A stretch of 64,000 nt of DNA from Alphaproteobacteria bacterium (GTDB lineage: Bacteria; Pseudomonadota; Alphaproteobacteria; UBA11073), in NCBI GenBank assembly GCA_965246945.1, contig CBDFFW010000001.1, positions 90,796 to 154,795 on the forward strand. The letters are read 5' to 3'. The position numbers and the translations under genes were made by a program. Below, one piece after another: positions 6,418-41,248 of the stretch. Every line of letters begins with the position of its first letter. The first letter of the stretch is position 1. The notes under the pieces were generated by a model. The model did not search any database. It was not told the DNA's origin and saw nothing but the letters and a program-made list of their open reading frames with translations.

Positions 6418-6501
6418 GGTCCCATGGCGGAATGGTAGACGCTCACGACTTAAAATCGTGTGCCGATAGGCGTCCCGGTTCAAGTCCGGGTGGGACCACC
6501 A
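6418..6501 (+). tRNA. tRNA-Leu (anticodon UAA), type II with a long variable arm
   Basis: The acceptor stem is ggtccca/tgggacc. The anticodon loop is cttaaaa. The T-arm is cccgg-ttcaagt-ccggg. A discriminator A and an encoded CCA are present. Confidence 0.85.
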
Positions 6502-7133
6502 TAACAGAGAAATGCTTTCATATCAACGTTCTATGTTAACTTATGCCAAATGCCGGTGCTATTCGAATTTAAATAAATAAACCGGCACGACTTTTGGTCG
6601 TAAAATGAAAAAGCTGTGTAAAGAAAAGTTGCAAGAAATCAGTATGTTGACAGTGAGGCAGCTCAAGAAAGCCTTGCACAAGGCTTACCCAACATTATAC
6701 CGTATTGCAAGCTAGTTACTCAAATTCAAAATTTAAACCCAAAGGGTGGAATGAAGCCGGTAGATTTTTGAGTTAGATTGCCTTTGCTACCGTTATTGGC
6801 CACAAGTTGAGGTGCCGGTGCTAGTCACAATGGCTATGCTGCCATTGCTTGTGTAATTAGCTATTTGTTTTCTGGTCATACCGGCATCTACCGTGCCCAG
6901 CGCCGCAACGACCCATTTACTGACAATATATAAACTTAACTATTTCGCATTGGTTATGTCGTTAACACAGCGCTTTAAGCTATTTTATTGCTGATCAATT
7001 AATTCTAAGAGAACCGGATTTATGAAAAAGGCGCAGTGAATTTTGAATTTCATTTTTCAATATGTTGTATTATTATAAAACAGTTCAAAGATTTTGTATC
7101 ATCTATGGTAGGGTGTCTAATGCGTAGGCATTT

Positions 7134-7883
7134 ATGATAGGTTTAAGACAATGGGAATCTGCCACGAAGCAGATCCAACCATTCGCCTTTTTAAAAGCGT
7201 TGACGTTATTCGTCGGTTTATCAGATCAAGAAATAGCGCTTTTTACCGATGTAGCCAAAGTCAAAACTTATAAAAAGGGGCACACACTTTATTCAGAAGG
7301 TGATGAAGCTAAGTTTTTTTATATCATTCGCGATGGCTGGGTAAAATTGTTTCACGTTACTGAGGATGGTGAAGAAGTCAATTTGGGGGTAATTACCAAA
7401 GGCAGCATGCTTGGCAAAAGTGCTATTTTTGAGAATAATATTTTTAATAATAATGCGCAGATTGTTGAAGCCGCAGAAATTGTTAGCATTCCACTGAGTT
7501 TGCTTAAAGAGCAGATCCAAAATAACCAAAAAATTGCCTATAATATGCTCAATTCCATGGTGCAGCATCAGCGAGAGCATGAAATGCAGTTTGAGCAATA
7601 TTTTCTTTATAGCGCCCCGCAGCGCATCGGCTGTTTTTTGTTGGGACTATGCCCAACCTTGGAACAGGTTGATGGCGTGATGCTTAATTTGCCGTATGAC
7701 AAAACGCTAATTGCTTCAACGCTTGGGATGAAGGGGGCTACTTTCTCGCGCGCTTTAAATTTACTGCGCACAGAAACCGGTATTCAGATTGAAGGAACTG
7801 CGGTTGTCATTGCTTCTATGTCTCGCCTGCTTAAATTTGTCGATGGCTGCTATTCGCATCATCACTTAATTAGTAAAATCTAA
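7134..7883 (+). CDS. Crp/Fnr family transcriptional regulator (cNMP-binding domain plus C-terminal HTH)
   Basis: 249 aa. cNMP-binding beta-roll pattern (YSEGDEAKFFYIIRDGWVKLF) and a C-terminal HTH (TLIASTLGMKGATFSRALNLL). AT-rich codon usage. Confidence 0.7.
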   Translation: MIGLRQWESATKQIQPFAFLKALTLFVGLSDQEIALFTDVAKVKTYKKGHTLYSEGDEAKFFYIIRDGWVKLFHVTEDGEEVNLGVITKGSMLGKSAIFENNIFNNNAQIVEAAEIVSIPLSLLKEQIQNNQKIAYNMLNSMVQHQREHEMQFEQYFLYSAPQRIGCFLLGLCPTLEQVDGVMLNLPYDKTLIASTLGMKGATFSRALNLLRTETGIQIEGTAVVIASMSRLLKFVDGCYSHHHLISKI

Positions 7884-8269
7884 ACTTCGCCAAATACGGT
7901 TTTTAACCAGCCCCATTCTAGCATGGCGGGACTATCAATATATTTTTGCCGGTTATCGGCAACGCGTTTGAGATATTGATAATTAAATGGCCATTCATCA
8001 TCTGGGGAAATCGTTTTCGTTTCGGTGATTTCGATTTTCATATTTTTAGTGAGGCGGAGCTTAAATTTTGCTTTTGGCCGATCATCAAAAACAATGGCGT
8101 GCAAGGCTGCGTCATCCGCCAGTTTTTTAAACCGCGCGGCCCAAATTTCGGTATAAGGAAATTTGCTTTTATTCTTTTCAATCGCTTCATTACAGATCTC
8201 TAAATACTGCCGAAATATCTGTTCATATTCTCTTTTTTCTTCAACGGCTTGGGCATTTTTACGAGGCAT
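7880..8269 (-). CDS. Hypothetical protein (129 aa, charged, AT-rich)
   Basis: ORF only. No recognised domain. Convergent with the Crp/Fnr gene, overlapping it by 4 nt. Confidence 0.4.
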   Translation of the reverse strand: MPRKNAQAVEEKREYEQIFRQYLEICNEAIEKNKSKFPYTEIWAARFKKLADDAALHAIVFDDRPKAKFKLRLTKNMKIEITETKTISPDDEWPFNYQYLKRVADNRQKYIDSPAMLEWGWLKTVFGEV

Positions 8270-8321
8270 GGCTTATGCATAGCATTATTTAAAAACAACG
8301 CTTTGATCTAAATCAAATGCG

Positions 8322-9275
8322 TTAATTTAAATTTGCATTGGAATACTGTTTTGTTCCGATCGCAACTGGCAGGCCACTTCCATGCTGAATGGCATTGGCC
8401 ACAACATCCCAATTTATTTCGGTGGTGAAAGTTGCCGCGCTGGCGATGGCAGTATAAATCATTTGGTTGTTGTCCTGCACGAAATGAAGATTGCCCGTGA
8501 TCAAATCGATTGGTTGGATGGGCGCAATTTCCAAATATAACGTATCGCCCTGCCAGCCAAGTTTATAGGGCTGGTTAACCACGGTAACTTCTGTGCCGTC
8601 TTCGATTAATCCGAATAAAGCTTCAATATCTTCAGGGAATAGGCGAATGCAGCCATGGCTGGTGCGTTTGCCAACACTATTCGGCACATTGGTGCCATGA
8701 ATAAGATAGCTCGGCCAGCCGAGATATAGTGCAAAATTGCCAAGCGGATTATCTGGCCCTGGTAAAACCTGTTCAGGCAATTCCGGGTTTTCAGCGCGAA
8801 TGGAAGCAGGCGGTGTCCAAATAGGATTTTGCTTCTTTCTAATAACCGTAGTAGTGCCTTGCGGTGTTTGCGAACCTTCTTTGCCAACACCAATCGGGAA
8901 GCTAAATACATGATCGATATCGGCAAAATAGAACAAGCGCAGTTCCGCCAGATTGATGACAATTCCATCGCGCGGCGCATCGGGCAAAATATGTGCTGTC
9001 GGCAAGGTAAGTATTTTACCAACTTTCAATTTTAGGGGATCGATACCTGGATTGGCTGCCAATAATTTAACGATGCCGACATCATGCTGCTGGGCAATCT
9101 TATATAAATTATCATTTGGCTGTACGGCATAAGAAGTGATGGTGCCAATCAGGTCATCATTAGCGAAAAATTCTGTGGCTTGCACCGCCGACGTTGCCCA
9201 CAGCGATAAAATGAGTAGCAAGGCAAAACGAAACAGAATTTGCCGAAAGTGTAATTTGGTAACAGATATAATCAT
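8322..9275 (-). CDS. L,D-transpeptidase (YkuD/ErfK family) with LysM domain and signal peptide
   Basis: LysM motif (YAVQPNDNLYKIAQQHDVGIVKLLAANPG...KVGKILTLP). YkuD catalytic motif (HGTNVPNSVGKRTSHGCIRL). I chose the start at the Met that precedes the signal peptide (MIISVTKLHFRQILFRFALLLILSLWATSAVQA). The tracked ORF extends to 9380. Confidence 0.75.
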   Translation of the reverse strand: MIISVTKLHFRQILFRFALLLILSLWATSAVQATEFFANDDLIGTITSYAVQPNDNLYKIAQQHDVGIVKLLAANPGIDPLKLKVGKILTLPTAHILPDAPRDGIVINLAELRLFYFADIDHVFSFPIGVGKEGSQTPQGTTTVIRKKQNPIWTPPASIRAENPELPEQVLPGPDNPLGNFALYLGWPSYLIHGTNVPNSVGKRTSHGCIRLFPEDIEALFGLIEDGTEVTVVNQPYKLGWQGDTLYLEIAPIQPIDLITGNLHFVQDNNQMIYTAIASAATFTTEINWDVVANAIQHGSGLPVAIGTKQYSNANLN

Positions 9276-9438
9276 GCGGTTTGATGACCTGTAGAAATAA
9301 ATTGAAGATTCAAAAGCCATTGTTTCCGGTGAGCGAAATAAAAATAAATCAAGCTGCTGATCGTGGCCGCAAAAAAGCACCAGACGGAAACCAGATAATA
9401 ATTAAAAAATGCGTAGGCGATGACAAAGGTAATCAAAT

Positions 9439-9951
9439 TCACAATGCCCAATTTACGCAGATGATTATCGCTGAAAAAAAGAACGCAGCGCAGGTCGCAA
9501 TAACGTAAATCGGGGTGACCCAATGATCATAGGGTATTGGCGGGTAGACGTATAAAATGCATGAATTGGCAATTTGTGCCGAGCCAGTGACCTGTAACAT
9601 GGCTGCTAAAACATAGGCCGCGACGACCCCACCAACTAATGTAACGCCGACCATGACCACACGACGTTGGTGGTTAGGTTCCAGTAACGCCACGCTGGCC
9701 GGTACTAGGATTGGCCAGATAATACCGGCGAATACGCCGTAAATGATGACCAGCCATAGCTGTATTTGCGGCCAAGTGCCGTGCAGCAGGTTAAGCCACA
9801 CCAAACCTTCAATGAATTGCTGAATCGCAAACAGCAGCGGCAAGGCGGCAAAAGGGATTTCTCGGTAACTACTGGTCTTTCGCAGCGAAGCAAAACCGAT
9901 GGTCGCCAAAACAGCAGCTGCACTAAAGCTGGCAACAGGCGAAAAACACAT
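9439..9951 (-). CDS. Hypothetical integral membrane protein (about 5 TM helices)
   Basis: 170 aa, hydrophobic throughout. No recognised motif. Confidence 0.45.
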   Translation of the reverse strand: MCFSPVASFSAAAVLATIGFASLRKTSSYREIPFAALPLLFAIQQFIEGLVWLNLLHGTWPQIQLWLVIIYGVFAGIIWPILVPASVALLEPNHQRRVVMVGVTLVGGVVAAYVLAAMLQVTGSAQIANSCILYVYPPIPYDHWVTPIYVIATCAAFFFSAIIICVNWAL

Positions 9952-10081
9952 CGCTTTGCTTAGCAGCTTGCGAAGCAGAAATATTTGACGTTAGTCAAAT
10001 TAGCCATTTTCAAGTCGTATTTGCTACCCTTAGGTCTGTTGACAAATTGGCCTCTCAACCTAGCGTTAATAGGGTACCACC

Positions 10082-10503
10082 ATGAGCCGCTTGCATATTC
10101 ATTCTGAAAACCATCTGGTTAAGCGCATAGGATGGTTAAGGCAGCCGTACTGGGTGCCAATGACGGCATCATTTCGGTCGCCAGTTTAATTATTGGGGTG
10201 GCTTCCGCTTCAACCGAACATAATCAAATTTTAATTGCCGGTGTGGCTGGGATTGCCGCCGGTGCCATGTCGATGGCAGCAGGCGAATATGTTTCGGTCA
10301 GCTCGCAATCTGATACTGAGCAAGCAGATTTGGCACGTGAACGTAAAGAACTAGCCGAAATGCCTGAAGCCGAATTGAATGAGTTAACTAAAATATACAT
10401 GGATCGCGGGCTGGAGGAGCCATTGGCGCGAGAAGTTGCCACCCAATTGATGAAAAGAGATGCATTAATCTCCTCTTTGGCGGCCACTTCCATTTTAAGC
10501 TGA
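10082..10503 (+). pseudogene. VIT1/CCC1-family iron/manganese transporter pseudogene (a 1-bp frameshift near 10131 plus C-terminal truncation)
   Basis: The frame from ATG 10082 gives MSRLHIHSENHLVKRIGWLRQ. The +1 frame from 10132 gives the conserved VIT continuation AAVLGANDGIISVASLIIGV...AGEYVSVSSQSD. Restoring one G in the run 'ggttaagg(g)cag' would join the two frames into the canonical GWLRAAVLGANDG. The ORF stops after about 120 residues of VIT domain, so the C-terminal TM half is missing. Confidence 0.6.
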
Positions 10504-10574
10504 TCGCTCAATATTTTTAGATCAGCCGTACGCGCTTCCACCGTTAGTTCGGTTGCTGCATAGGCCATTTCTAA

Positions 10575-10964
10575 TTGAGCATTTACCTTTTTCTATGGTT
10601 ACCGCAAGTTTTATGGCTGCATGTCATTTCGGATGCCATTATTGCGCTTTCTTATTACTCCATTCCGCTAACGATCTTATATTTTATTCGCAAACGCCGC
10701 GATCTGCCATTTCCTTATTTGTTTTATTTATTTGGTGCATTTATTCTTTTTTGCGGCACTACACATCTGATGGAAATCTGGGTGATCTGGCAACCCGATT
10801 ATCCGGAGGAAGGCCTTATGAAGGCCTTAACGGCCATGGTTTCCATATGTGCCGCTATTATCACCTGGAAAATTGTCCCTGTAGCACTGCAGTTAAGAAG
10901 CCCAGCAGAATTGGAAACAATGCCCATGCGGCATAAAATCAGCCGTGTCAAAAAAATGGTTTAG
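10575..10964 (+). CDS. Ethylene-binding-domain protein (ETR1-type copper/ethylene-binding transmembrane domain) without any output domain; possibly truncated
   Basis: 129 aa. ISDAIIALSYYSIPLTILYF...FGAFILFCGTTHLMEIW aligns closely with Arabidopsis ETR1 ISDFFIAIAYFSIPLELIYF...FGAFIVLCGATHLINLW. That alignment includes the Cu-ligand Cys and His (CGxTH). Three TM helices are followed by a short helical tail and then a stop. Confidence 0.6.
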   Translation: MSIYLFLWLPQVLWLHVISDAIIALSYYSIPLTILYFIRKRRDLPFPYLFYLFGAFILFCGTTHLMEIWVIWQPDYPEEGLMKALTAMVSICAAIITWKIVPVALQLRSPAELETMPMRHKISRVKKMV

Positions 10965-11725
10965 CATGGTAACAATAACCGTAATTTGAGTTGTCTAAAT
11001 TTTAAAGTTAAAACCCTTTAGCCAATCTTTAAGAAGGCGTATTAGCATACCATTCGGCTTATTGCCACCTAATGGAAATTCTAGAATTCCAGTTGATGAC
11101 AATACGAAAACTTTAAAAAGTTTTACCGCAAAGTAGAGTTTTTTGCCGACGCTTATTTGCGATTATGCGGTTTTATTTCAACACAATACCATGACCTTAA
11201 GCCACCTCAATTATAGATATCCCACCGGTACGGCGTTCACATGCTGATTTAGGGACACTAAACTATTAGCATAACACATTACTCCACCCTGACCAATCGG
11301 GATATTAAGATTTCCACCGCATTGAATCCTTTAAAGCCTGCCTGCATTTAAAATAGAAGCGCTTTTCTTTATCCCGAGTAGAACATGCGTGAGGAGTACG
11401 TACATAAAGTGTAAATATTCGTTATAGAAATGTGTTAGAGCCATTAGATATTCTAATGCGGAACATTAAAACTATGCATTTGACTAATCAATTCGTGGAC
11501 GACAAATTGTATAAAAATAGAGGCTCTCAATGGTGCGGCAAAATTTAGTTCAAAAGAAGCGTGCAGTGGTCAACGAACATTCCGCAGTGGCAGCTCCCAC
11601 AAACCATTGGAATTGCAAGCCTGGATAGCCAGATAACCATAATGCGGTTGGCTAGGTAAACCCTTAGAACAAGATTTTAAAATACTACTTTCAACAATTT
11701 TACAATAAAAAATATAGGATTCTTT

Positions 11726-14683
11726 ATGACAAAATCAGAATGTCCATTTATGCCGCAAGGCGCGACCAAACATGGGTTTGATCTTTTTCGTTATACTTTG
11801 GAAAAGCCAGACCGTGATCTGTTCGATGCTTGGCAGGATACTGTAACTACTGAGGCGCAAAAAGAACTTTATGATATATTATCAACCGAAGCACGTTTAA
11901 AAGTAGCTCAAATTGTGCATGTTTATGGTTTTTATAATTCACAATTAATCGCAAAAGCGCATCGTGAAGCAATTAAATTGCGGCAGGATAATGATGATCT
12001 GCCAGGCCAGACGATCGCTGGTGCTATTCAACGTGCTGCAGAAATGGGTTTAACAGCCGAGCAGATGAAAGAAGTTTTGTTGCGGCAAATTGCTTTATCT
12101 TTAACGGCGCATCCAACTCAATATAATTTACCTGAGCATGTACAGGCACGACAAGTTTTGGCTAAAGCAATACAAAAAGACGATCCCTCTAAGGACGAGA
12201 TCACAGAAGCGCTAAGTCTACTTTTAAATACGCCAGCTGGATTTGCTGAAAAAAAGATCCCGCAACAGGAATTGTTAGAAAATCTTGAGCATGCAACGAA
12301 TTTATTTTGGGTACTGCCTGGTCTACTTGATAGCGTTCGAAAATCGTTAGACATTGTGCATAGACAATTTCCTAACAATGGTTACGGCTATATTTTCACT
12401 GGTATCGAACCAGACATAAAATCAATTGTATTGCGCTTATGGCCGTGTGTAGACCGCGATGGCAATCCAGCGATTACAACGATGGTTACCACACTGGGTA
12501 TTGCCCAAAGCCAAGAAAAAATAGTTGATTTATATATAAATTCTATTGATTACATTTGTAAATTGAATGGCGATAAAGCACCGCGCAAAGTTACTTTCGA
12601 CAGATTACAGCGATTGAAACAAGCTTTAATCGACGGATCAATTTCGCCAAAAAATGATGCGGATATGGAGAAATTTGGTTTATTGCTAACAACTTGTTTA
12701 AAAGTGGAAGATGGGGATGAAGCATCAAAGCAACTACGCTGGCTAGATATGCGGGCACGTGTTTTCCGGTGGCATTTAGGTAAGTTTCAACCACGCCAGG
12801 AAGCAGGTGCCCATACCCAAGCGGTAGCCGCTATTGGTCCGCTTTTGCAGTTCGAAAATGGTTTCGAAGATACTGCTTATAATGCAAATATGCCCCAACC
12901 AGAAAAGCAGCAACAACTGCAAAAAATATTGGCCGCAATAAAGAATGCCAATATTGGTACTTTAGATCGTCTTAATAAAACTATCAGCGATCAATTATCT
13001 ATTGTAAGCCCTCAAATTTATAAGAACTACACTATTTTTAATCTCATAAGCGAAAACCCTGCGCATTTTTGCGATTACATTATTTCAAACGCCGGTAAGC
13101 CAAGCGATGTGTTGGAAGTTCTGGTATTGGCCAAGCTGGCTGGAGCTGAACAGACAATAAATATTCGTATGCTTTGTGAGACGTTGACTGATTTAAAGGC
13201 CATGCCACAAACCCTTGAAACGCTTTTGGCAATTCCTGAATATCGCGATTTCATCAAGCAAAATCACAATAATCGTTTACCTGTTATGATTGCGCTTTCA
13301 GATACTCAGCGCCAACACGGCCCAGCTATTATTTTCGATCAAATCTTAACGATGGTTGATTTATGTAAAGTTGCTTTAAAGCATGAGATCGAGCTCGAAA
13401 TTATGTGGGGTGGCTCTGATGATTTATACCGTGGTGGCGGTGATATTTCGATGTATCCTTATTACCTGGCCCGCAGCATTGTGGGTTATGCGGCAACCAC
13501 TAATCAAAAACTGAGCAAACTGGCAGCGTGCGTAAGAGAAGTTTCGTTTACGCTTCAAGGCCGGCAAGTGGAAGATGTGATTGGCAATACTGCATCTGCT
13601 TGGCGTCTGGGCGAGCGTATGTTTGCTGCCGCAACCAACTTTTATAGCTTTCTACGCGGCGAACACACAGCACAATTTCAGTTAGATTTGGCAGAAGAAT
13701 ATCAAGCCAATGAAGCTGCACGCGATGCCTTGCAGCCCTGCATGCGTGCCTATGAATTCATGCGCGGACCTTTGCTTGACACATTAAGTTTAGCTGTAGT
13801 GCCTGCTGCCGCAGTTAAAAAGTTAAACACTTCTTCTAGGCCAGACAAACGGCCAACGGTTATTGGCAATCCAGACCCACGTGAAATTGATGCATTGCCA
13901 TTAACTGATACCCGCGCCATTACCAACCAGTTTGCGGTGCAATTACCTGGATTAGAAATAAACGGTTGGTTTGGTTTAACCCAATTGGCTGACCTTGATG
14001 CCCGAATTGTTCAAAACTCTCCCATTCTACAGGAAATGCTTAAACGTGCGCTTATCTGTTTAGAACGCACATATCTTGAAAAAGTTTGGATGTTTTCTGG
14101 ACTTACACCACCTGCTTCCTGCATAGCCGCTTTGTACGATACCGCATTCAATCAGGTTTGGCAGCGGGAATTGCAACTTAGTATCAATGGCAAGCTAGAT
14201 CAAACCAATAAGCTCATACAATTTGATTTTAACAAATATATGCCCGTTGTATTGCAGCAATTGGATTTGGATGATACGTTAATAAATCGTCAGACTGTTT
14301 TATTAACCTGGCTTGAAGCAGAATATAAGCGTACGGAAAAAGTAGTTTGTCGGAAGTTTTTTAATAATCCCAAATTTAGTTCTCAATCCGCACGTGAAGC
14401 AGTAAAAACTTTTCCACGTTTATCTGAAGAACTTGTTTTGCAGAAAAGAAATATTGCGCCTATGCAAACATGGCTGGCAATGGCCACTACAGAATTGTAC
14501 CAAACGCCTCAGCCGACCCAAGCGCAACTTACTGCCCTGCAGGCTTTTGCCCAGGTAATTGCTGAAGGCACGCGTACGCCTAATGCTTACATTAACCACA
14601 CGCCCGGCTTTGAGCCAGACATGCGCAAAGTTAGTGATCATTTAAGTAAATTTGGCCCCAAAACATTCGCTGTTACTATTTAA
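11726..14683 (+). CDS. Divergent phosphoenolpyruvate carboxylase (PEPC)-like protein with substituted catalytic motifs; AT-rich
   Basis: 985 aa. It is colinear with E. coli Ppc through several signature blocks. LTAHPTQ matches [17 protein letters not shown] matches [31 protein letters not shown] matches [29 protein letters not shown] matches [21 protein letters not shown] corresponds to [32 protein letters not shown] corresponds to IELTLFHGRGGSIGRGGAP, with the His and the first Arg replaced. The C-terminus ends at ...FAVTI and lacks the conserved ...AGIAAGMRNTG tail. Confidence 0.7.
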   Translation: [985 protein letters not shown]

Positions 14684-14695
14684 TTCAACATTTCC

Positions 14696-15538
14696 TCAAC
14701 ATTTAAGTCTTTTTAGCACAAATTCTTCGAATGAATTTATCGCGGCATTATCGGCACGGTGTTTCAATAGTGAAACATGCGTAGCCTCCAACGCGGGTAA
14801 TAATTTTGTGCGCAAGGCATTTAATTGATCTGGAATCATAGTTAACGGTAAAACGGTAATTCCCAAACCGGCTTTAACAGCGGCAATTGTACCAGCATAA
14901 CTGGGACTAGAGAAGACCAGCCGCCATTTCAATCCAGCCCTTTCAAGCGATTGGAGGGCGCTGGACCGGTAGACACAAGGTTGCGGCGCAACTACCAAGG
15001 GAATAGGCCTGCCAGACTCCACCAAATTCATATCGCCTACCCATTCCAAGGGTTCAGACCACACTTCAACGCCATTTGGAAAATTCTCAGGTTGGTTCAT
15101 TTTCACCAGTACCAGATCAAACTTTTTTTGTTTGAAGCGCTGGAATAAATTTAAAGTTAAATCGCACTCCACATTTACCAATATGCGTGGATGAATGCGC
15201 GCGAACTCCACCAAAATATCTGATAAAAAGACGCTGGCAAAATTCTCTGGTAAGCCAAACCGTACTTCACCATGTAATTCCGGCTCTTTAAATCGATCTA
15301 ATGCTTCTCGATGCAAGGCGAAAATCTGCCGCGCATAGCTGCGAAAAATCTCGCCTTCGGCAGTTAAAGCAAAAGCTTTGCCACGTGTGAATAACTGTTT
15401 GCCAAGCAACTCTTCAAGTTTAGCAATTTGCTGACTAACAGCGGATTGCGTGCGGCCCACACGTTCAGCTGCTTTGGTGAAGCTAGCAGTTTCCGCCACA
15501 GCTAAAAAGGTCTGCAAAGTGATGGTATCGATAGTCAT
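14696..15538 (-). CDS. LysR-family transcriptional regulator, divergently transcribed from dabB
   Basis: 280 aa. N-terminal HTH (LQTFLAVAETASFTKAAERVGRTQSAVSQQIAKLEELLG) plus a substrate-binding domain. Convergent with the PEPC-like gene, with a 12-nt gap. Confidence 0.8.
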   Translation of the reverse strand: MTIDTITLQTFLAVAETASFTKAAERVGRTQSAVSQQIAKLEELLGKQLFTRGKAFALTAEGEIFRSYARQIFALHREALDRFKEPELHGEVRFGLPENFASVFLSDILVEFARIHPRILVNVECDLTLNLFQRFKQKKFDLVLVKMNQPENFPNGVEVWSEPLEWVGDMNLVESGRPIPLVVAPQPCVYRSSALQSLERAGLKWRLVFSSPSYAGTIAAVKAGLGITVLPLTMIPDQLNALRTKLLPALEATHVSLLKHRADNAAINSFEEFVLKRLKC

Positions 15539-15641
15539 TAGATTTTCTAATTTAGGATATAAGAATTATCCGTTTCACTTATCTAAATAATACTAATAGC
15601 TTGGTCAATAGAAATTAACATTTCTATGCCAAGGAGCAAAT
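15539..15641. promoter_or_regulatory. Divergent lysR/dabB intergenic control region (putative LysR-box-like AT dyads; RBS aaggag at 15630-15635)
   Basis: 103-bp AT-rich spacer containing ATAAGAATTAT / TTATC...TAAATAAT dyad-like elements. A canonical Shine-Dalgarno lies 7 nt before the dabB ATG. Confidence 0.35.
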
Positions 15642-16970
15642 ATGCTATCATCACTATTCCATATTGATCGGCTTGCCATCATTATGCTGGCTTTAATTGG
15701 TGCTATTGGCCTAATCATTTGGCAATTTTCACGGCGTTATTTGCAGGGCGATCAATTATATCGTGTTTTTTTCCAGCGGCTCGCATGTTTATTGGCATCA
15801 TTGGCATCATTGGTCATTACCGATAACCTAATTGTATTTTTAATCAGCTGGGGATTGGCCAATTATTGGTTGGTAAAATTGATGGTTCACAAGTCGGAAT
15901 GGTCTGCCGCCAAAGCGGCGGGGGAATTAACAGGTAAATCGCTTGGCCTGGGTTTTGCCAGCCTAGTTGCTGGCTTTACCTTGCTTTATTGGCTAACCGG
16001 CACGGCTTCTATTCAAGCGATTTTGCTGCACAATAATCAACACCCGGCTTTGCTGCTTGCCCTTGGATTAATTTTATTTACCGCCCTCATCCAATCAGCG
16101 ATTTGGCCTTTTTCCGGCTGGTTGAAAAATTCGCTTAATTCACCAACCCCTGTTTCGGCCATCATGCATGCCGGTCTGGTGAATGGGGGCGGTTTTTTAC
16201 TGGTACGTTTTGCGCCGCTTTATCTGCAACAGCCGTTGCTGCTCCAAATCATTTTTGTGCTTGGCATTACCAGCGCGGTGATTGGCACGTTATGGAAACT
16301 GCTGCAGCCGGATATTAAGCGGATGCTGGCTTGTTCGACCATGGCGCAAATGGGTTTTATGCTGGCGCAATGCGGCCTTGGTTTATTCCCGGCGGCAGTG
16401 GCCCATCTGTGCTGGCATGGCCTGTTCAAAGCCTATTTGTTTTTAGGCGCAGGTGGCGCGGCCCAGGAAAAGCGCTTGCCGATTATCCATCCGAATAGCT
16501 TTACCGCTTTTGCTTTGGCGCTGCTCTGCGGCTTACTTGGCAGTTATGGCTTTGCATTGGCCAGCCAACATGCATGGCTGGCGCCCAATAGCATATTGGT
16601 ACTGCAAGCGGTGGCTTCAATAGCTGCTGCGCAACTCGCGCTCACCCTGCTGCAAAATAAGCCATGGCAACGGCTGCCGCTGGCCGTTTTATTATGCGCC
16701 ATCGCTGGTGGTATGTATGGCGGCACCGTTGGCTTGGTTGAGCAAGTAATGGCACCGCTGCAAATTTTCCAACCGCAATCACTAAATGCTCTGCATATCA
16801 GTGCCATCGTTATCCTGGCCGCTGGTTGGCTCGGCATGTTGTTTAGCCAGCAGCTTGGCCGCCTAACCCAGCAGCCGTTTTTCTTACGCGGTTATGTGCT
16901 GGCGCTAAATGCAAGTCAGCCAAGCCCCGCTACCATCACCGCCCACCGCAACCATTATCGCTTAGGATAA
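15642..16970 (+). CDS. dabB: DabB/MpsA-like proton-conducting membrane transporter (NuoL/MrpA/NDH-5 family, PF00361-like)
   Basis: 442 aa polytopic membrane protein. Complex I antiporter-like subunit motifs are present (SPTPVSAIMHAGLVNGGGFLL; STMAQMGFML; HLCWHGLFKAYLFLGAG). It is immediately followed by a DUF2309 gene. Confidence 0.75.
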   Translation: MLSSLFHIDRLAIIMLALIGAIGLIIWQFSRRYLQGDQLYRVFFQRLACLLASLASLVITDNLIVFLISWGLANYWLVKLMVHKSEWSAAKAAGELTGKSLGLGFASLVAGFTLLYWLTGTASIQAILLHNNQHPALLLALGLILFTALIQSAIWPFSGWLKNSLNSPTPVSAIMHAGLVNGGGFLLVRFAPLYLQQPLLLQIIFVLGITSAVIGTLWKLLQPDIKRMLACSTMAQMGFMLAQCGLGLFPAAVAHLCWHGLFKAYLFLGAGGAAQEKRLPIIHPNSFTAFALALLCGLLGSYGFALASQHAWLAPNSILVLQAVASIAAAQLALTLLQNKPWQRLPLAVLLCAIAGGMYGGTVGLVEQVMAPLQIFQPQSLNALHISAIVILAAGWLGMLFSQQLGRLTQQPFFLRGYVLALNASQPSPATITAHRNHYRLG

Positions 16971-16973
16971 ATC

Positions 16974-19208
16974 ATGCAAACTGCCCTGAAAACCAAAGTT
17001 GTTGAAGTGACTGAAAACCCAGCCTACGACCTCGGCGAAGCGATTGCGACGGCTTGGAATTATATTGCGCCGTTCTGGCCGCTGAAAAACTTAATTGCCT
17101 GTAATCCCTTGCAAGGCCTAGAAGATTTACCTTTTGAGCAAGCGTTAAATAAAGGCATCGTGCTGTTTCAGCGCGCTGATCTGCCATCACCGCTGCTGGC
17201 TGTTAATCGCCAAACCATCAAATGGTGTCAGGTATTGTTTGACGATGGACAGGCGAGTTTAACCATGCCGCTGCGCGAACAGGGGTTTTTCGCCGCCTGG
17301 CGGCAATTGGCGGTGTTCGATGCACAGCTGCATCAAAATAATCAATTTCATAAAATGTGGTTGAACCGCCTGCCGCTTTCGGCTGAACAAACCATTGCGG
17401 AATGTTTGGTGAAATTGAATATTCCAGCAGCACAACACGAAACGTTTTTAACTTTATTATTAACCACCTTGCCTGGCTGGGCGGCTTATGCCAAATACCG
17501 TCTGAATTGGGAGCCAGATCAAGCGAATGCCACTTGCCCCATCCGCTCGGCTGATTATCTGGCAGTGCGCTTGGTTATCACCACCCTGCTATGGCCGGAT
17601 GCGGCAGAGTTATTGGTGGAACAAGATAATATTTCACCAGCAACTGATATCTTGGCCACCATCACTACCAAAGAAACAGCTTACCGCCAGGATTTATTGG
17701 CGAATTTGAAGCGGCAAGCGGCTGCCCCGCCAACTATCCGCCCAGCCGCACAAATGATATTCTGCATCGATGTGCGTTCCGAACCAATGCGCCGGGCGAT
17801 AGAAGGGCAGGGTGACTATGAAACCTTTGGCTTCGCAGGCTTTTTTGGCCTGCCGATAAGCTTGCAAAATGAAAAAACGGGCGAACGCTATGCATCCTGC
17901 CCAGTTTTGCTGCAACCTAAGTATCATTTGTCCGAAACCAGTTGCACTAGTGGGGATTGTGCTTCAGATAATGCGAACAGTAAGGCGCGTTTGCGTTTGT
18001 ATAAAAGTTTCTATCAGGCATTGAAATATCATTTTACGACCCCGTTCGCGCTGGTTGAAACGTTAGGCTTATGGGCCGGTTTGTGGATGGGTTTGCGCAC
18101 ACTGGCGCCGCAGACAGCTATTCAATTAAAGACCAACATTGTTAAAAAAATCAGGCCTGAAGTGCAAACCCAATTTGATATTGCGGGCAGCATCCCCTTT
18201 GCCGATCAATGTACTATGGCTGGCGGCGCCTTGCGTATGATGGGGTTAACCCAAAATTTCGCGCCACTAGTCGTTCTATGCGGCCATGGCAGTACCACGC
18301 AAAACAACGCTTATGCCACGGCCTTGGATTGCGGCGCGTGCGGCGGACGGCATGGCGGGAGCAATGCGCGTATTTTGGCGGCGATTTTGAACCATCAAAT
18401 GGTCCGGGTAGCTTTGGTGCAAGACGGTATTGTCATTCCGGCCGATACGCATTTTATCGCCGCGCAGCATGATACCACCACGGATGCGATTAACTTGTTA
18501 GTCGATGACGAATTATTAGGTGATCATCGCAACCAGGTCAGCACGTTACACGCAGCATTATCCCAAGCACAACACACCAATCAGCGAGTGCGCGCCGCAC
18601 AAATGAATACAGAGCTTGATCATATTCAATTGCGTAGCTGTGACTGGGCCCAAACCCGCCCGGAATGGGGCTTGGCACGCAATGCGGCGTTTATTGTTGG
18701 GCCACGTAGTTTAACTGCAACATTAAATTTAGCGGGCCGTAGTTTTCTGCATTCCTATGACTGGCAGCAAGATGCTAATAGTACAGCGCTTACTACCATT
18801 TTAACCGCGCCGATGGTGGTTGCCCAATGGATTAATAGCCAGTATTTATTTTCCAGCTTGGATAATGTGGCTTATGGCAGCGGCAGCAAAATTACCCAAA
18901 ATGTCACTGGCAAAATGGGGATTATGCAGGGCAATGCCAGCGACTTAATGCATGGTTTGCCCCTGCAATCGGTTTACTCCAACGACAACAAACCTTATCA
19001 CCAGCTGCAACGGTTGCTAACCGTGGTTTACGCGCCCAAAGCGAAAATTGATAAAATTATCGCCGCGCAGCCCGTTTTACAAAAACTATTCGGCAATGGC
19101 TGGGTGCAATTGGTTTGCCTTGAACCAGCCAGCAAACTGGCCTATCAGCTGCAGCGTGATTTCACTTGGGAGAAATTAGTAGGTGAGCATGTCATGCTAT
19201 GCGGGTAG
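16974..19208 (+). CDS. dabA: DabA/MpsB-like DUF2309 protein (beta-carbonic-anhydrase-like component of the DAB inorganic-carbon uptake system)
   Basis: 744 aa. It starts 4 nt after the dabB stop. It contains a beta-CA-like CxDxR motif (IFCIDVRSEP) and an H...C cluster (CGHGSTTQNNAYATALDCGACGG). Length and arrangement match DUF2309 partners of NuoL-like proteins. Confidence 0.75.
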   Translation: MQTALKTKVVEVTENPAYDLGEAIATAWNYIAPFWPLKNLIACNPLQGLEDLPFEQALNKGIVLFQRADLPSPLLAVNRQTIKWCQVLFDDGQASLTMPLREQGFFAAWRQLAVFDAQLHQNNQFHKMWLNRLPLSAEQTIAECLVKLNIPAAQHETFLTLLLTTLPGWAAYAKYRLNWEPDQANATCPIRSADYLAVRLVITTLLWPDAAELLVEQDNISPATDILATITTKETAYRQDLLANLKRQAAAPPTIRPAAQMIFCIDVRSEPMRRAIEGQGDYETFGFAGFFGLPISLQNEKTGERYASCPVLLQPKYHLSETSCTSGDCASDNANSKARLRLYKSFYQALKYHFTTPFALVETLGLWAGLWMGLRTLAPQTAIQLKTNIVKKIRPEVQTQFDIAGSIPFADQCTMAGGALRMMGLTQNFAPLVVLCGHGSTTQNNAYATALDCGACGGRHGGSNARILAAILNHQMVRVALVQDGIVIPADTHFIAAQHDTTTDAINLLVDDELLGDHRNQVSTLHAALSQAQHTNQRVRAAQMNTELDHIQLRSCDWAQTRPEWGLARNAAFIVGPRSLTATLNLAGRSFLHSYDWQQDANSTALTTILTAPMVVAQWINSQYLFSSLDNVAYGSGSKITQNVTGKMGIMQGNASDLMHGLPLQSVYSNDNKPYHQLQRLLTVVYAPKAKIDKIIAAQPVLQKLFGNGWVQLVCLEPASKLAYQLQRDFTWEKLVGEHVMLCG

Positions 19209-20037
19209 ACAGATCTTGTTGCCTACCCAGCATCAAAAAGCGATGGCACTAGCGCCAGCATTCAAAAATGTTTTGGACGCTGAGATTGCCGAAATTATCA
19301 TTGATACCGATCAATTCGGTACTTTTTCAGGCGAGGTTGAACGACCAGGTGATGCACAGGCTTGCGCCAAGCTTAAATGTGAAGCAGCGTTGGCTATCAC
19401 GGATACACCTTACGCTGTCGCCAGCGAAGGCAGTTTTGGTCCGCATCCCGTTATTCCAATATTGGCTTGCAACCATGAACTGCTATATTTTATTGATCAC
19501 GAAAATGACTTTCACTTGTCTTTAACCAAGCTATGCACAGATACCAATTACCGCATGGCAACGGTTGAGAATGTTGATCAGCTACATACTTTTGCCAAAC
19601 AAACTTATTTTACTTCGCATGCTTTGATGATCAGGCCCAATATCTGGGCTGACCAAAAGATTATTTTCAAAGGTCTCCAAACATATGAGGCCCTCCATCA
19701 AGCTTTTATAGTTGCTTGCCAAAATTCTGGTGATGGGCAGGCTTTCGTCCAAACCGAAATGCGTGCTCACTTCAATCCAACCCGCATGCGAAATATTGCC
19801 AAATTGGCAGGAGATTTGGCTAAACGGTTATGTTCAATTTGCCCTGTTTGCCAAACACCCGGTTGGGGCAAGATTGCCATCAAAACTGGCTTGCCCTGTA
19901 GCTGGTGCCAAACCAAAACCAACCTTGTAAAAAATGAAATATGGGGTTGCGCCAAGTGTGATTATCAGGAAGCGAAAGAACGATTAGATGGTTTGCGAGC
20001 TGCCGAGCCGACTTATTGTCCCAGCTGTAATCCTTAA
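19183..20037 (+). CDS. Hypothetical protein with a C-terminal double CxxC zinc-ribbon, translationally coupled to dabA (start uncertain: 19183, 19189 or 19243)
   Basis: 284 aa ORF overlapping the dabA stop by 26 nt. The C-terminus reads CSICPVCQTPGW...CSWCQT...CAKCDY...CPSCNP, which gives 4 to 5 CxxC pairs. Confidence 0.5.
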   Translation: MSMSCYAGRQILLPTQHQKAMALAPAFKNVLDAEIAEIIIDTDQFGTFSGEVERPGDAQACAKLKCEAALAITDTPYAVASEGSFGPHPVIPILACNHELLYFIDHENDFHLSLTKLCTDTNYRMATVENVDQLHTFAKQTYFTSHALMIRPNIWADQKIIFKGLQTYEALHQAFIVACQNSGDGQAFVQTEMRAHFNPTRMRNIAKLAGDLAKRLCSICPVCQTPGWGKIAIKTGLPCSWCQTKTNLVKNEIWGCAKCDYQEAKERLDGLRAAEPTYCPSCNP

Positions 20038-20348
20038 ATTTCTACTAAATTGAAGTGACAAAAAATTAAATGAAAACTTTTAGCGAGAAGGTGCTAGCTA
20101 AATCTATGTCCGCTGATACCAATAATATAGGCGATGTCATGCTGCGTATTTTAGCGCCAGATAAACCATTTTTTAACTTACCCTTTATGTTTTCAAATCG
20201 CTTGGTAGTTATCATGCAAAAACCGTAAAAAAGCTTTAAAGTTCTGATTAAATAATTTTTAATAGTTAACATTTATTATTTTGAAATAAGTGATTGTTGA
20301 TCAAATCCTCGCTAAATAGCTTCCTGCAGAACCTCACGGCGTTCTTGC

Positions 20349-20975
20349 TCAGGCTTGGTTGCGAATCTGTCCATATTTGGTCTGCTTAATTTTTAGGATA
20401 ACATCGGCCAGCCAACCTGGCACCTGGGAAACGGTAGAAGTTAAATCTTTCAGATCCTGATCATCCAGCCGATTGGCACATTGCTGGATGGTTTGCGCAT
20501 CAATACTGCCTTTACCGAGACAAGATAGGGCCTGCAGGGTAAAATTGGCATTGGTGGAAATGCGATCCATCAAAGGCACCCTGGCATGTTTGAAGGTGAT
20601 GGTGCGGCCAGCCATGTGTTTAGTTTTGGAAATGCCATTAGTCAGATAAACAGGCTTTGCTGGCACCTGGGTGGATAATCCCAGGATATTAGCAGACGCA
20701 GCACCAGAAGGAAAAACCATAGCGCCGGTTTTAGTGGCGATGATTTGCGCCAAATCATCAGCGCTGGGGGATAGGGTGCCAAGGGTTGGGTGTTGCTTAG
20801 GGTAATCGTAAATACCACGCCCCAAGCGCCGGATGGTACCATTCTTTGCCAACCGTGCGAATGTTTGATCGACAGCGGCACGCGTGCCAACATCTAAAAA
20901 GTCTTTGGGCGTAAACACCCAGCCACGCCGTTTGGCGTGGATTCTTTGGGTAATCGTGGCGGTAACGTCGTACAT
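20349..20975 (-). CDS. DUF6088 / AbiEi-family (type IV TA antitoxin-like) protein, apparently orphan
   Basis: 208 aa. The N-terminal pattern RGWVFTPKDFLDVGTRAAVDQTFARLAKNGTIRRLGRGIYDYP and the central LGLSTQVP motif match the DUF6088/AbiEi_4 family from memory. No AbiEii-like nucleotidyltransferase ORF is adjacent. Confidence 0.6.
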   Translation of the reverse strand: MYDVTATITQRIHAKRRGWVFTPKDFLDVGTRAAVDQTFARLAKNGTIRRLGRGIYDYPKQHPTLGTLSPSADDLAQIIATKTGAMVFPSGAASANILGLSTQVPAKPVYLTNGISKTKHMAGRTITFKHARVPLMDRISTNANFTLQALSCLGKGSIDAQTIQQCANRLDDQDLKDLTSTVSQVPGWLADVILKIKQTKYGQIRNQA

Positions 20976-21230
20976 AGCAGTATTTATATGTCAGATAATA
21001 ACATATATATTTCTGACAATCAAAAATTTACAGTTTACCTGACTTTTAGTGTTAATCAGACGTTCCGAAATAATGGAATAAATTATGAAATACAGCTTTG
21101 TTAATGTTTAGCCAAAATTATCACCTAAAAGAAGCCCAAAATCGTCAAAAGTTACCCAGAAACTTACCCAATTATATTTTCTATATATAAAACACAATTA
21201 ATATCAGTACATTATAGGTAGTCCCAATAC

Positions 21231-21285
21231 ACTTAAAATCGTGTGCTGTTATGGCGTCCCGGTTCAAGTCCGGGTGGGACCACCA
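21231..21285 (+). repeat. Partial tRNA-Leu copy (anticodon loop through CCA), a direct repeat of 6448-6501. Putative distal att site of the island.
   Basis: acttaaaatcgtgtgc ... cgtcccggttcaagtccgggtgggaccacca is identical to the tRNA-Leu 3' part, apart from the variable-loop segment (tgttatgg versus cgatagg). It has no 5' half, so it is not a functional tRNA. Confidence 0.7.
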
Positions 21286-21374
21286 CTACATAAATTTGAT
21301 TTTTAGGGCGGCTTCTTTTTAAAGCATTTGACTAAAAAAAATATTTATCCTGCTTGCTTTCACTCGTATTATGT

Positions 21375-21389
21375 GTTCTACTTTTGTTC
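21375..21389 (+). promoter_or_regulatory. Alphaproteobacterial-type LexA operator (SOS box) GTTC-N7-GTTC immediately upstream of the likely lexA start
   Basis: The sequence gttctacttttgttc lies between the first ATG of the ORF (21371) and the more plausible start ATG at 21392. Confidence 0.55.
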
Positions 21390-21391
21390 TA

Positions 21392-22003
21392 ATGTTTACC
21401 ACCCGTCAAAAACAGCTGTTTGAGTTTATTAAATCGCATTATGCACATAGTGGGATCGTGCCGTCTTATGATGAAATGAGGGCCGCGCTGGGTTTGGCTT
21501 CGAAATCCTCTGTCTTCGCTCTAATCGACCAGCTGGTGCAAAAAGGTTTTATCCGCAAATCACTAAACAAAGCGCGCAGTTTGGAAATTGTTGAACAAGC
21601 AGCCAAAACATTAAACCTTATTCCGCATTATGGGCGTATTGCCGCCGGTCTGCCGATCGCCGCGTTAACACAAGCGGATGAATTTGAAATGCCCGGTAAT
21701 TGGCTCGGCAAAGCCGATTATGCCTTAACGGTAGTTGGACAATCCATGCAGGATGCTGGAATTCTGGATGGCGATACGGCGTTGATTAAGCAGACGGCTA
21801 CGGCACCGCCAAAATCGATTGTGGTGGCATTGATTAATAACGAGGAAACCACGCTTAAATATTATCAGCCGCATGGCACAAACATTATTCTATTGCCAGC
21901 CAATGCCGCATTTGAACCGCAGCACTACCATGCCAGCCAAGTGCAAATTCAAGGCGTATTGGCCGGCATTTTTCGCAACTTGGAGGCTAAATGGAAAATC
22001 TAA
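21392..22003 (+). CDS. lexA: LexA repressor (SOS regulon transcriptional repressor, S24 peptidase)
   Basis: N-terminal winged HTH (TTRQKQLFEFIKSHYAHSGIVPSYDEMRAALGLASKSSVFALIDQLVQKGFIRK). Cleavage region (GRIAAGLPIA). Ser/Lys dyad context (VVGQSMQDAGILDGD ... K). I chose the start at Met8 of the tracked ORF so that the SOS box is not translated. Confidence 0.8.
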   Translation: MFTTRQKQLFEFIKSHYAHSGIVPSYDEMRAALGLASKSSVFALIDQLVQKGFIRKSLNKARSLEIVEQAAKTLNLIPHYGRIAAGLPIAALTQADEFEMPGNWLGKADYALTVVGQSMQDAGILDGDTALIKQTATAPPKSIVVALINNEETTLKYYQPHGTNIILLPANAAFEPQHYHASQVQIQGVLAGIFRNLEAKWKI

Positions 22004-36042: not shown

Positions 36043-36723
36043 ATGAGCAAAAAACATCAAGGACTGTTTAGCCCCAAAGCATTTATTCAACGCGTTAAGC
36101 GGAAGTTTCCTGATGAAGCTTGGGATGATGGTGAATTAACTCCAATTCATGCAGTCGTAGTGGCCAGGTTAATTGCGGAAATAGTGTTTGGTCCTATCGT
36201 GCGGAATGACCACACGCCTTGCTTCCAGCACATGCAGGCGGTTGCAAAAGCAAGTAATTTAACTGAGCAAGCAATTGGTTGGTTACATGATTTATTAGAA
36301 GATTCCATTTGGAAAGTTGACGATCTTTATCAGCTCGGTTTTTCTGAACAGATCATTCAAGGCGTTATCAGAATGACACGTATTGAAAAACCATTAGATG
36401 GAGTAACTGTCAAAGAACCTTATTTTGATTTGATTAAAAGATGCGGAAGTACTGTGCCGACTTGCAATTGCAAAATCAGGGATATCGCCCATAATTCAAT
36501 TCCACGTAAAGGGTATAAAGTTCCGGATGATAAATTTTTGCGCTATCAAGTTTCTATTGCTTATCTAGAAGCAATTAAACGCCAGAAAATTAAACCTGAT
36601 ACACCAGTAATTAATTTTGTAATAACTGATCCCAAATTTAAAAAAAGTGATAAGATAAGAAAATTCGTTCTCAAACATTCGTCACATAATACATCTGGAC
36701 AGTCTGGGGAGGCTACTCCTTAA
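36043..36723 (+). CDS. Small HD-domain protein (possible Mesh1/SpoT-hydrolase-like alarmone hydrolase); AT-rich
   Basis: 226 aa. H...HD...ED pattern (HAVVVARLIAE ... GWLHDLLEDS). The C-terminus has a Cys pair (CNCK). AT-rich codon usage, unlike the neighbouring genes. Confidence 0.45.
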   Translation: MSKKHQGLFSPKAFIQRVKRKFPDEAWDDGELTPIHAVVVARLIAEIVFGPIVRNDHTPCFQHMQAVAKASNLTEQAIGWLHDLLEDSIWKVDDLYQLGFSEQIIQGVIRMTRIEKPLDGVTVKEPYFDLIKRCGSTVPTCNCKIRDIAHNSIPRKGYKVPDDKFLRYQVSIAYLEAIKRQKIKPDTPVINFVITDPKFKKSDKIRKFVLKHSSHNTSGQSGEATP

Positions 36724-41194: not shown

Positions 41195-41248
41195 CGTACT
41201 AGTCTGGGGGACTAGGGGTCGCGGGTTCGAATCCCGCCGTTCCGACCA
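41172..41248 (+). tRNA. tRNA-Pro (anticodon GGG)
   Basis: The acceptor is cgggacg/cgttccg (one G-U pair). The D-arm is agcgcagtccggtagcgt. The anticodon loop is ctgggga. The T-arm is gcggg-ttcgaat-cccgc. An encoded CCA is present. Confidence 0.85.

Follow-up and report, generated by a model that had tools for sequence, protein, structure and literature searches.

The stretch of DNA analysed here (the window, 64,000 nt of the alphaproteobacterial contig CBDFFW010000001.1) contains two tRNA genes on the plus strand, tRNA-Leu(UAA) at 6418-6501 and tRNA-Pro(GGG) at 41172-41248. Both were called by ARAGORN and confirmed with Rfam, which found no further RNA family in the window. Between tRNA-Leu(UAA) and a partial copy of this gene near lexA lies an interval of 14.8 kb, which carries among other genes those for a Crp/Fnr-type regulator, a stand-alone ethylene-binding-domain protein, a divergent phosphoenolpyruvate carboxylase (PEPC)-like protein, the inorganic carbon uptake proteins DabB and DabA, and an AbiEi-type antitoxin. 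An earlier note on this DNA had proposed that the interval is an old, decaying island which entered the 3' end of the tRNA gene and no longer has an integrase. Our analysis of its borders, gene content and counterparts in related genomes points to an integration remnant at tRNA-Leu(UAA), with reservations about its age, its unity and its cargo.

The observation on which this proposal was built, namely that the 3' half of the tRNA gene (anticodon loop to CCA) recurs at 21231-21285, was confirmed. The repeat begins with the last base of the 5' strand of the anticodon stem and ends with the encoded CCA, and both copies lie on the same strand, i.e. in direct orientation. Two runs are identical, one of 16 nt (6448-6463 and 21231-21246) and one of 33 nt (6469-6501 and 21253-21285); the former had been counted correctly, whereas the latter had been given as 31 nt. 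Between them is the divergent variable loop that had also been described, with CGATA in the tRNA gene versus TGTTAT in the copy. The 33-mer occurs exactly twice in the window, also when up to three mismatches are allowed, and was matched in none of 100 dinucleotide-preserving shuffles. No third fragment of tRNA-Leu was found in the window at up to six mismatches.

On its 5' side the copy ends sharply. The 30 nt upstream of it agree with the 5' half of tRNA-Leu at 10 of 30 positions (window-wide null 7.4 +/- 2.3, p = 0.18), and a local alignment of the same sequences gave p = 0.37. Similarity thus stops at the anticodon loop, and the copy is not a decayed whole tRNA gene; a damaged second tRNA-Leu gene, which the earlier note had named among the possible refutations, is disfavoured by this limit. 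The 3' end of tRNA-Pro has no repeat anywhere in the window, therefore no second island of this type is visible in it.

The host is a divergent alphaproteobacterium. Named homologues of its IspB and LexA proteins (Acidocella, Paracoccus, Sphingomonas) are 45-51% identical, and a scan of the genome collection with IspB gave no match above 42% identity. Closer relatives were found on contigs designated L038, L039 and L040. L038 (5.6 kb, ENA sample ERZ26165376) encodes an IspB of 87% identity, and L040, which comes from the same sample and is taken as the same organism, encodes a LexA of 86% identity. L039 (10 kb, Logan SRR25375730) encodes an IspB of 81% identity.

In both L038 and L039 ispB is followed by tRNA-Leu, as in the window. 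The tRNA-Leu gene of the window has the same sequence as that of L038 (100% identity), and a single nucleotide of the variable loop sets it apart from that of L039. The homology of L039 to the window stops exactly at the 3' end of the tRNA (6502); what follows there are genes for msrA, DoxX, an ECF sigma factor and NrsF, and also for BufA1, a glyoxalase and a methyltransferase (L039 122-4015). The homology of L038 runs 235 nt beyond the tRNA, to 6736, with 75% identity, and then falls to 49%, the level of random sequence; a GGDEF gene and a response-regulator gene follow (472-1257 and 1-465 of L038) before the contig ends. Three genomes hence show three different gene sets after the same tRNA-Leu, and within the DNA at hand there is an integrase in none of them.

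The segment 6502-6736, which L038 shares with the window, is absent from L039 and belongs to no Rfam family. Its identity of 75% exceeds that of 4-fold degenerate sites (about 51% against L038), and its hairpin (Table 1) is perfectly conserved in L038. We infer that this segment is either the arm of an element beside attL or native DNA under constraint. Its excess similarity would reflect either constraint or a recent receipt of the segment by both lineages from related elements.

On the right side, L040 is collinear with the window from 21344, 58 nt to the right of the tRNA copy, to about 29.5 kb, i.e. over lexA, a fatty-acid hydroxylase gene, yceI, a cytochrome b561 gene and the DNA beyond. 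In L040, lexA is preceded by a pgsA-like gene, cdsA and plsC, where the contig ends; no tRNA fragment was found there. A decayed tRNA fragment at this place was suggested by a global alignment and rejected, with local scores at chance level (p ~0.1). None of the interval genes was found in L038, L039 or L040, and the ends of the L038 and L040 contigs do not overlap. Both repeats coincide with breaks of synteny against the available relatives. As a side observation, the probable start of lexA is the ATG at 21392, which gives a protein of 203 aa as in L040, and the start of the longest open reading frame (ORF) at 21371 is probably wrong. Just upstream of this probable start lies a direct repeat GTTC-N7-GTTC (21375-21389), conserved in L040, which we take to be a box of the alphaproteobacterial SOS type.

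The differences between the two tRNA sequences bear on the age of the copy. Outside the variable loop there are no changes in 49 nt, and all three differences are located in the variable arm. The stem of this arm is still paired in the copy (C-G to U.G), only the loop being enlarged, and ARAGORN still calls tRNA-Leu(UAA) when the copy is joined to the tRNA 5' half. At the site of the A-to-T change, the tRNA of L039 has the same base as the copy. By simple arithmetic, the chance that three random changes over 54 nt all fall within one 9-nt stretch is ~0.005. At 4-fold degenerate sites of four genes the window and the L038/L040 organism are 51% identical, corresponding to a Jukes-Cantor distance of 0.79, or 0.40 per lineage. 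A neutral 49-nt relic predating this split would have stayed unchanged with a probability of ~1.5e-8, and a similar calculation from 0/49 changes gives a 95% upper bound of ~0.06 substitutions per site for the age of the fragment. At such an age, neutral decay is expected to cause at most ~0.5 changes in the variable segment of 8-9 nt.

Since no change in 49 nt stands against a distance of 0.79, the fragment arose, or was homogenised for the last time, well after the lineage had separated from its nearest relative. Because neutral decay predicts at most about half a change, the three variable-arm differences look pre-existing, i.e. allelic rather than the result of decay. Judged from these sequences, the integration event is later than the split from the nearest sampled relative, and a young fragment agrees with the lack of a tRNA fragment upstream of lexA in L040. 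The variable loops also support the view, implied by the earlier note, that the site brought together two different alleles of tRNA-Leu. Its term "old" has to be qualified, as a copy with 0/49 changes outside the variable loop postdates that split by far; the truncated genes are in line with its "decaying".

The gene content of the interval was derived from Pfam, NCBIfam, PADLOC and PHROGs, for which ORFs of at least 70 aa were scanned (Table 1). All genes that had been listed before were matched (those for the Crp/Fnr, ETR1_N, PEPC-like, LysR, DabB, DabA and DUF6088 proteins), and truncated VIT1 and DUF6629 genes were found in addition. For the Crp/Fnr regulator the best NCBIfam match was FtrB-like, far under the cut-off of that model. 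The ETR1_N ORF is situated ~70 nt 3' of the VIT1 fragment on the same strand, and 10553-10964 holds two overlapping ORFs in different frames. PHROGs gave no match for six of the proteins of the interval. Eight cargo proteins are present in the collection, and in clusters at 90% identity seven of them stand alone. The LysR protein clusters with entries of 52 residues, and for the YkuD and DUF6671 ORFs in their listed form the collection has no entry.

Table 1. Features of the interval between tRNA-Leu(UAA) and its partial copy, with the adjoining borders (positions in the window)
Feature	Position	Strand	Basis or remark
Intact tRNA-Leu(UAA) with encoded CCA	6418-6501	+	ARAGORN; Rfam RF00005, 58.6 bits
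Left copy of the direct repeat, anticodon loop to CCA	6448-6501	+	
Non-coding segment directly 3' of the tRNA, with hairpin AAAGCCTTGCACAAGGCTTACCCA at 6668-6691	6502-6736	.	blastn and pairwise alignment
AT-rich non-coding segment, stops in all frames	6737-7133	.	No integrase remnant detectable
Crp/Fnr-family regulator (cNMP_binding, HTH_Crp_2), GC3 0.41	7134-7883	+	Pfam
129-aa ORF, low GC	7880-8269	-	No match in Pfam, NCBIfam, PADLOC, PHROGs
L,D-transpeptidase (LysM, YkuD)	8322-9380	-	Pfam, NCBIfam
DUF6629 gene, probably C-terminally truncated (profile positions 1-153/209)	9439-9951	-	Pfam
5' fragment of a VIT1-family gene, pseudogene (profile positions 1-117/214)	10132-10503	+	Pfam, NCBIfam
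Stand-alone ethylene-binding-domain protein (ETR1_N)	10575-10964	+	Pfam, E = 1.3e-39
AT-rich non-coding gap, 760 nt	10965-11725	.	No recognisable gene remnant
Divergent PEPC-like protein, 985 aa, GC3 0.35	11726-14683	+	Pfam, NCBIfam
LysR-family regulator, divergent from dabB	14696-15538	-	Profile match
DabB-type (NuoL-like) membrane subunit	15642-16970	+	Pfam, NCBIfam
DabA, inorganic carbon transporter subunit	16974-19208	+	Pfam PF10070, E = 8.8e-225
DUF6671 protein, true start probably downstream of the listed one	19183-20037	+	Pfam match from residue 65
Gap of 310 nt downstream of abiEi, expected place of the AbiEii toxin gene	20038-20348	.	No remnant detectable
DUF6088/AbiEi-family antitoxin gene, orphan	20349-20975	-	PADLOC AbiEi, E = 1.7e-60; Pfam
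AT-rich non-coding arm beside the right repeat	20976-21230	.	
Putative displaced 3' half of tRNA-Leu (attR side), 16 nt + TGTTAT + 33 nt	21231-21285	+	
Right flank outside the element: lexA and promoter region	21344-22003	+	

The statement that the interval has no integrase gene was borne out by all searches. Among its ORFs there was no Phage_integrase, serine recombinase, transposase, relaxase or phage domain, a six-frame Pfam scan of its four non-coding gaps returned nothing at E <= 1, and no integrase was found with PHROGs. Stop codons occur in every frame of 6502-7133. An origin as a prophage remnant was considered as well: the interval has no phage genes, and viral contigs contain neither the tRNA-type attP pattern nor the motifs of the arm. 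A pattern of the tRNA-Leu 3' half with a free variable loop had 0 matches in viral contigs and JGI metagenomes, motifs of the left arm had 0 matches in viral contigs, and the arm itself had none in plasmids. A related complete element was not found in viral contigs, JGI metagenomes or plasmids.

The only tyrosine recombinase of the window is encoded at 43982-45001 (plus strand), ~22.7 kb past the right repeat. It has 339 aa with a SAM-like N-terminal domain and a Phage_integrase domain, scores 113 and 90 bits against XerD and XerC (cut-offs ~330) and matches a PHROG integrase family at 5e-34. Its gene lies 2.7 kb downstream of tRNA-Pro(GGG) among genes for a TPR-methyltransferase and a TPR-GT41 protein, beside flagellin. 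It could belong to another element or be a candidate integrase acting in trans.

The orphan abiEi, 255 nt from the right repeat, is the sole gene of a mobile-element type left in the interval. An AbiEii partner was not found in the interval, and the 310-nt gap next to abiEi was empty in the six-frame scan. With tblastn, homologues of AbiEi were found on 522 plasmid records, 321 of them predicted to be conjugative and most of them alphaproteobacterial (Agrobacterium, Rhizobium, Sinorhizobium, sphingomonads). The plasmid DUF6088 homologues usually stand beside a gene for an "AbiEii/AbiGii toxin". The orphan abiEi may be a hint, and only a hint, at descent from an integrative and conjugative element (ICE) or an integrative and mobilizable element (IME).

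For base composition the 64-kb window was the only baseline of the host. The GC content of the interval is 44.0%, that of the remaining window 48.5%, and the GC content at third codon positions (GC3) averages 0.452 in 12 interval genes versus 0.504 in 39 other genes (Mann-Whitney p = 0.008). The mosaic of GC-poor and normal genes that had been noticed before was recovered: GC3 is low in the PEPC-like gene (0.35), the 129-aa ORF at 7880-8269 (0.39), the Crp gene (0.41) and also the YkuD gene, and host-like in dabB and dabA (0.52-0.53), abiEi (0.51) and DUF6629 (0.54). The tetranucleotide signature dips over 9-16 kb. Composition weakly favours a foreign origin for part of the interval. Elsewhere in the window, a 226-aa ORF at 36043-36723 (plus strand, GC 0.38, GC3 0.29, no Pfam match) coincides with a tetranucleotide dip at 34-38 kb; this region may be another small foreign insert.

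The earlier note had regarded the cargo as coherent, which was not supported by dabB and the PEPC-like gene. The dabB ORF (442 aa) aligns only from about position 66-77 of NuoL-type models, and the start of lysR, 103 nt upstream of dabB, leaves no room for the missing N-terminus. Because the ORF starts ~65-75 residues into the models, DabB lacks the first transmembrane segments, and the DAB module may be impaired or a short variant.

The PEPC-like protein reaches 129 bits with the PEPC equivalog model of NCBIfam, whose cut-off is 815. It retains the TAHPTQ, DRDGNP, LxE and SD motifs, one RGG and the later Arg motifs. GYSDSxKDxG is replaced by ALSDTQRQHG and FHGRGGxxGRGG by WGGSDDLYRGGG, i.e. 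the glycine-rich catalytic loop is remodelled, and the canonical C-terminus is missing. Its family is very small, with only 7 proteins at E <= 1e-30, itself included, among 1.84 billion cluster representatives; one of these relatives is 43% identical. The altered motifs are common to all members aligned: the family retains TAHPT, DxDGNP, LxE, SD and RAI, carries (A/M)(L/M)SDTQRQxGP for GYSDSxKDxG and GGSDDxxRGG for FHGRGGxxGRGG, and has no C-terminal GIAAGxRNTG. The only relative recovered with its context, at 26% identity, is encoded at 9764-12826 of a JGI metagenome contig (L041), where its neighbours are dxs and genes for a CorC-type transporter, an isochorismatase, a TPR protein and an outer-membrane protein; neither dabBA nor a mobile-element gene was found near it. 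Possibly the PEPC-like protein is a phosphoenolpyruvate-using enzyme with a changed second half-reaction, and a functional link between PEPC and DAB through bicarbonate is a conjecture. This very rare, motif-altered gene is the most unusual item in the interval.

Taken together, 6502-21285 is probably what degradation has left of one or several integrative elements, which a tyrosine integrase had recombined into tRNA-Leu(UAA). A fragment of 54-55 nt that starts at the anticodon loop fits the anticodon-centred class of tRNA gene islands described below, and because of this the crossover is placed in the anticodon loop, the present 3' half of the gene is regarded as element-borne and 21231-21285 as native. 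The element's own tRNA 3' half, with the variable loop GATA, would have regenerated the gene, all DNA from 6502 onward having arrived with it as foreign DNA, and the native 3' half of the host would have been pushed 14.8 kb to the right, beside lexA. The integrase gene usually adjoins the regenerated tRNA in P4-type and many other islands. Here this gene, and with it the ability to excise, would later have been lost by deletion, probably in the non-coding segment 6737-7133, a likely deletion scar at the place where the homology to L038 ends. Besides, the AbiEii toxin gene would have disappeared, together with portions of two further genes, and the outcome would be a fixed integrase-less island with both att-like repeats intact. 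L038, with the same tRNA allele and the same 235-nt arm, would carry a related element with different cargo; an identity of 75% over these 235 nt is what is expected if related elements use tRNA-Leu in both lineages.

Several findings weigh against this interpretation. No excisionase gene and no detectable remnant of a mobility gene is present in the interval, and its left and right arms have no motifs in common beyond chance. The 235 nt shared with L038 could be constrained native DNA, which would move the left border of the foreign DNA to ~6737. The deviation of GC3 is modest and dabBA, abiEi and DUF6629 are host-like; the tetranucleotide deviation is equally large at 34-38 kb and 46-51 kb, outside the interval. 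The searchable data hold two relatives, as three short or low-coverage contigs. An unoccupied ispB-tRNA-Leu-lexA site, which the note had advised to look for, was sought in L038, L039 and L040 and was not found in these two relatives, different DNA following tRNA-Leu in each. Directly observed are the repeat with its sharp limits, the missing integrase, the truncated genes, the orphan abiEi, the synteny breaks at both ends and the young age of the fragment relative to the split, whereas a simple insertion is a reading of these.

It is conceivable, though we think it clearly less probable, that the integration was real and that the 14.8 kb are not one element but arose through several events at a hot spot formed by tRNA-Leu. 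These could include tandem accretion, deletions within the region and the capture or retention of resident genes, e.g. lysR-dabBA. The blockwise GC3 mosaic agrees with this, the Crp, 129-aa, YkuD and PEPC-like ORFs being low and dabBA, DUF6629 and abiEi host-like, as do the two long non-coding gaps and two truncated genes at the block borders and the three contents after the same tRNA in three lineages. At islands linked to tRNA genes, both tandem arrays and degenerate remnants that include partial tRNAs have been described (bioRxiv 10.1101/2020.12.28.424599; PMC4383910). However, internal att remnants are absent, since the window holds a single tRNA-Leu fragment even at six mismatches. If the region is composite, the description as one island with coherent cargo is wrong.

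The position of the copy could also be secondary, an integration having made the fragment and a later rearrangement or imprecise excision having placed it beside lexA. In neither relative is lexA near tRNA-Leu, in L040 it is preceded by phospholipid-synthesis genes of a housekeeping type, and no alignment is possible over the 58 nt that separate the fragment from the L040 homology. Yet synonymous divergence is near saturation (d = 0.79), so that the rearrangements could lie in the lineages of the relatives, the L039 break falls exactly at the tRNA end and the fragment is young, all of which makes this course of events quite unlikely. A copy that has nothing to do with integration, i.e. a local partial duplication of the tRNA gene or what remains of a second tRNA-Leu gene, appears very improbable. 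The missing integrase and empty site would fit it, and so would a marginal similarity of the two copies 3' of the CCA (13/30, p = 0.025). Against it, the 5' half shows similarity only at chance level, the copy extends exactly from the anticodon loop to the CCA, and its differences are restricted to the variable arm with pairing kept; a local duplication would not give a distance of 14.8 kb with unrelated genes between.

One extension of the integration reading, which we regard as unlikely, is that the element is not dead. Its pristine repeats would then still be acted on, in trans or in cis, by the integrase of an element family that targets tRNA-Leu(UAA) repeatedly in this poorly sampled alphaproteobacterial clade. 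The 235-nt arm present also in L038 would be a recognition arm common to the whole family, and a hitch-hiking carrier without integrase would move the PEPC-like enzyme and the DAB module between small-genome alphaproteobacteria.

Integrase-less islands with a tRNA gene at one border and its displaced fragment at the other are already well known, and the present case adds no new principle. If the preferred reading as a degraded remnant is true, tRNA-Leu(UAA) is a hot spot of gene gain in a barely sampled alphaproteobacterial lineage; its closest relatives in the databases share no more than 81-87% identity in a housekeeping protein. The same reading would account for the gain of a Crp-type regulator, an ethylene-binding-domain protein, DAB carbon uptake and an unusual PEPC-like enzyme by this lineage. 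In addition, the interval is a worked example of an island missed by design by integrase-dependent finders such as Islander.

Among known systems, P4-type islands at the enterobacterial tRNA-Leu gene leuX resemble the interval in the direct repeat of the tRNA 3' end at the far border. They differ from it in having a P4-like integrase gene beside the tRNA and a shorter 3'-end repeat, and homology between the two would not be expected.

In the accepted model of such islands, integration splits the tRNA gene (tDNA), which is made whole again by sequence of the element, and the far end can be recognised by the displaced fragment (PMC4383910). The Islander tDNA islands of Hudson, Lau and Williams are divided by crossover into an anticodon-centred class (A) and a T-stem/junction class (J), class A accounting for 2083 of 3919 islands (PMC4383910). 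The interval shares with class A an intact tRNA gene at one end, a displaced cognate fragment in the same orientation at the other and the extent of this fragment from the anticodon loop to the 3' end, and its 14.8 kb lie within the usual size range. In contrast, Islander requires a tyrosine integrase gene inside the interval, and here neither gene nor remnant was found, with no PF00589 match in the ORFs or the gap translations.

Prochlorococcus has tRNA-linked variable islands with a partial tRNA copy and decayed content, and with different cargo at the same tRNA among related genomes (tycheposon paper, bioRxiv 10.1101/2020.12.28.424599), all of which is seen here as well. Unlike these, the interval has no tycheposon hallmark genes, a single partial tRNA copy and an alphaproteobacterial host. 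Together with Islander-type islands that have lost their integrase, the closest known kind are cis-mobilizable elements (CIMEs; ICEberg 2.0, PMC6323972), which have lost the genes for integration and transfer and kept both att-type repeats. At the sequence level the same is true here, the repeat being undamaged outside the allelic variable loop. CIMEs derive from an ICE or IME by deletion, whereas here only the orphan abiEi hints at such a descent and no partner element or matching integrase is known; those described are mainly streptococcal, whereas the interval is alphaproteobacterial. Most likely, then, the interval is a tDNA island without integrase, formally in the same state as a CIME.

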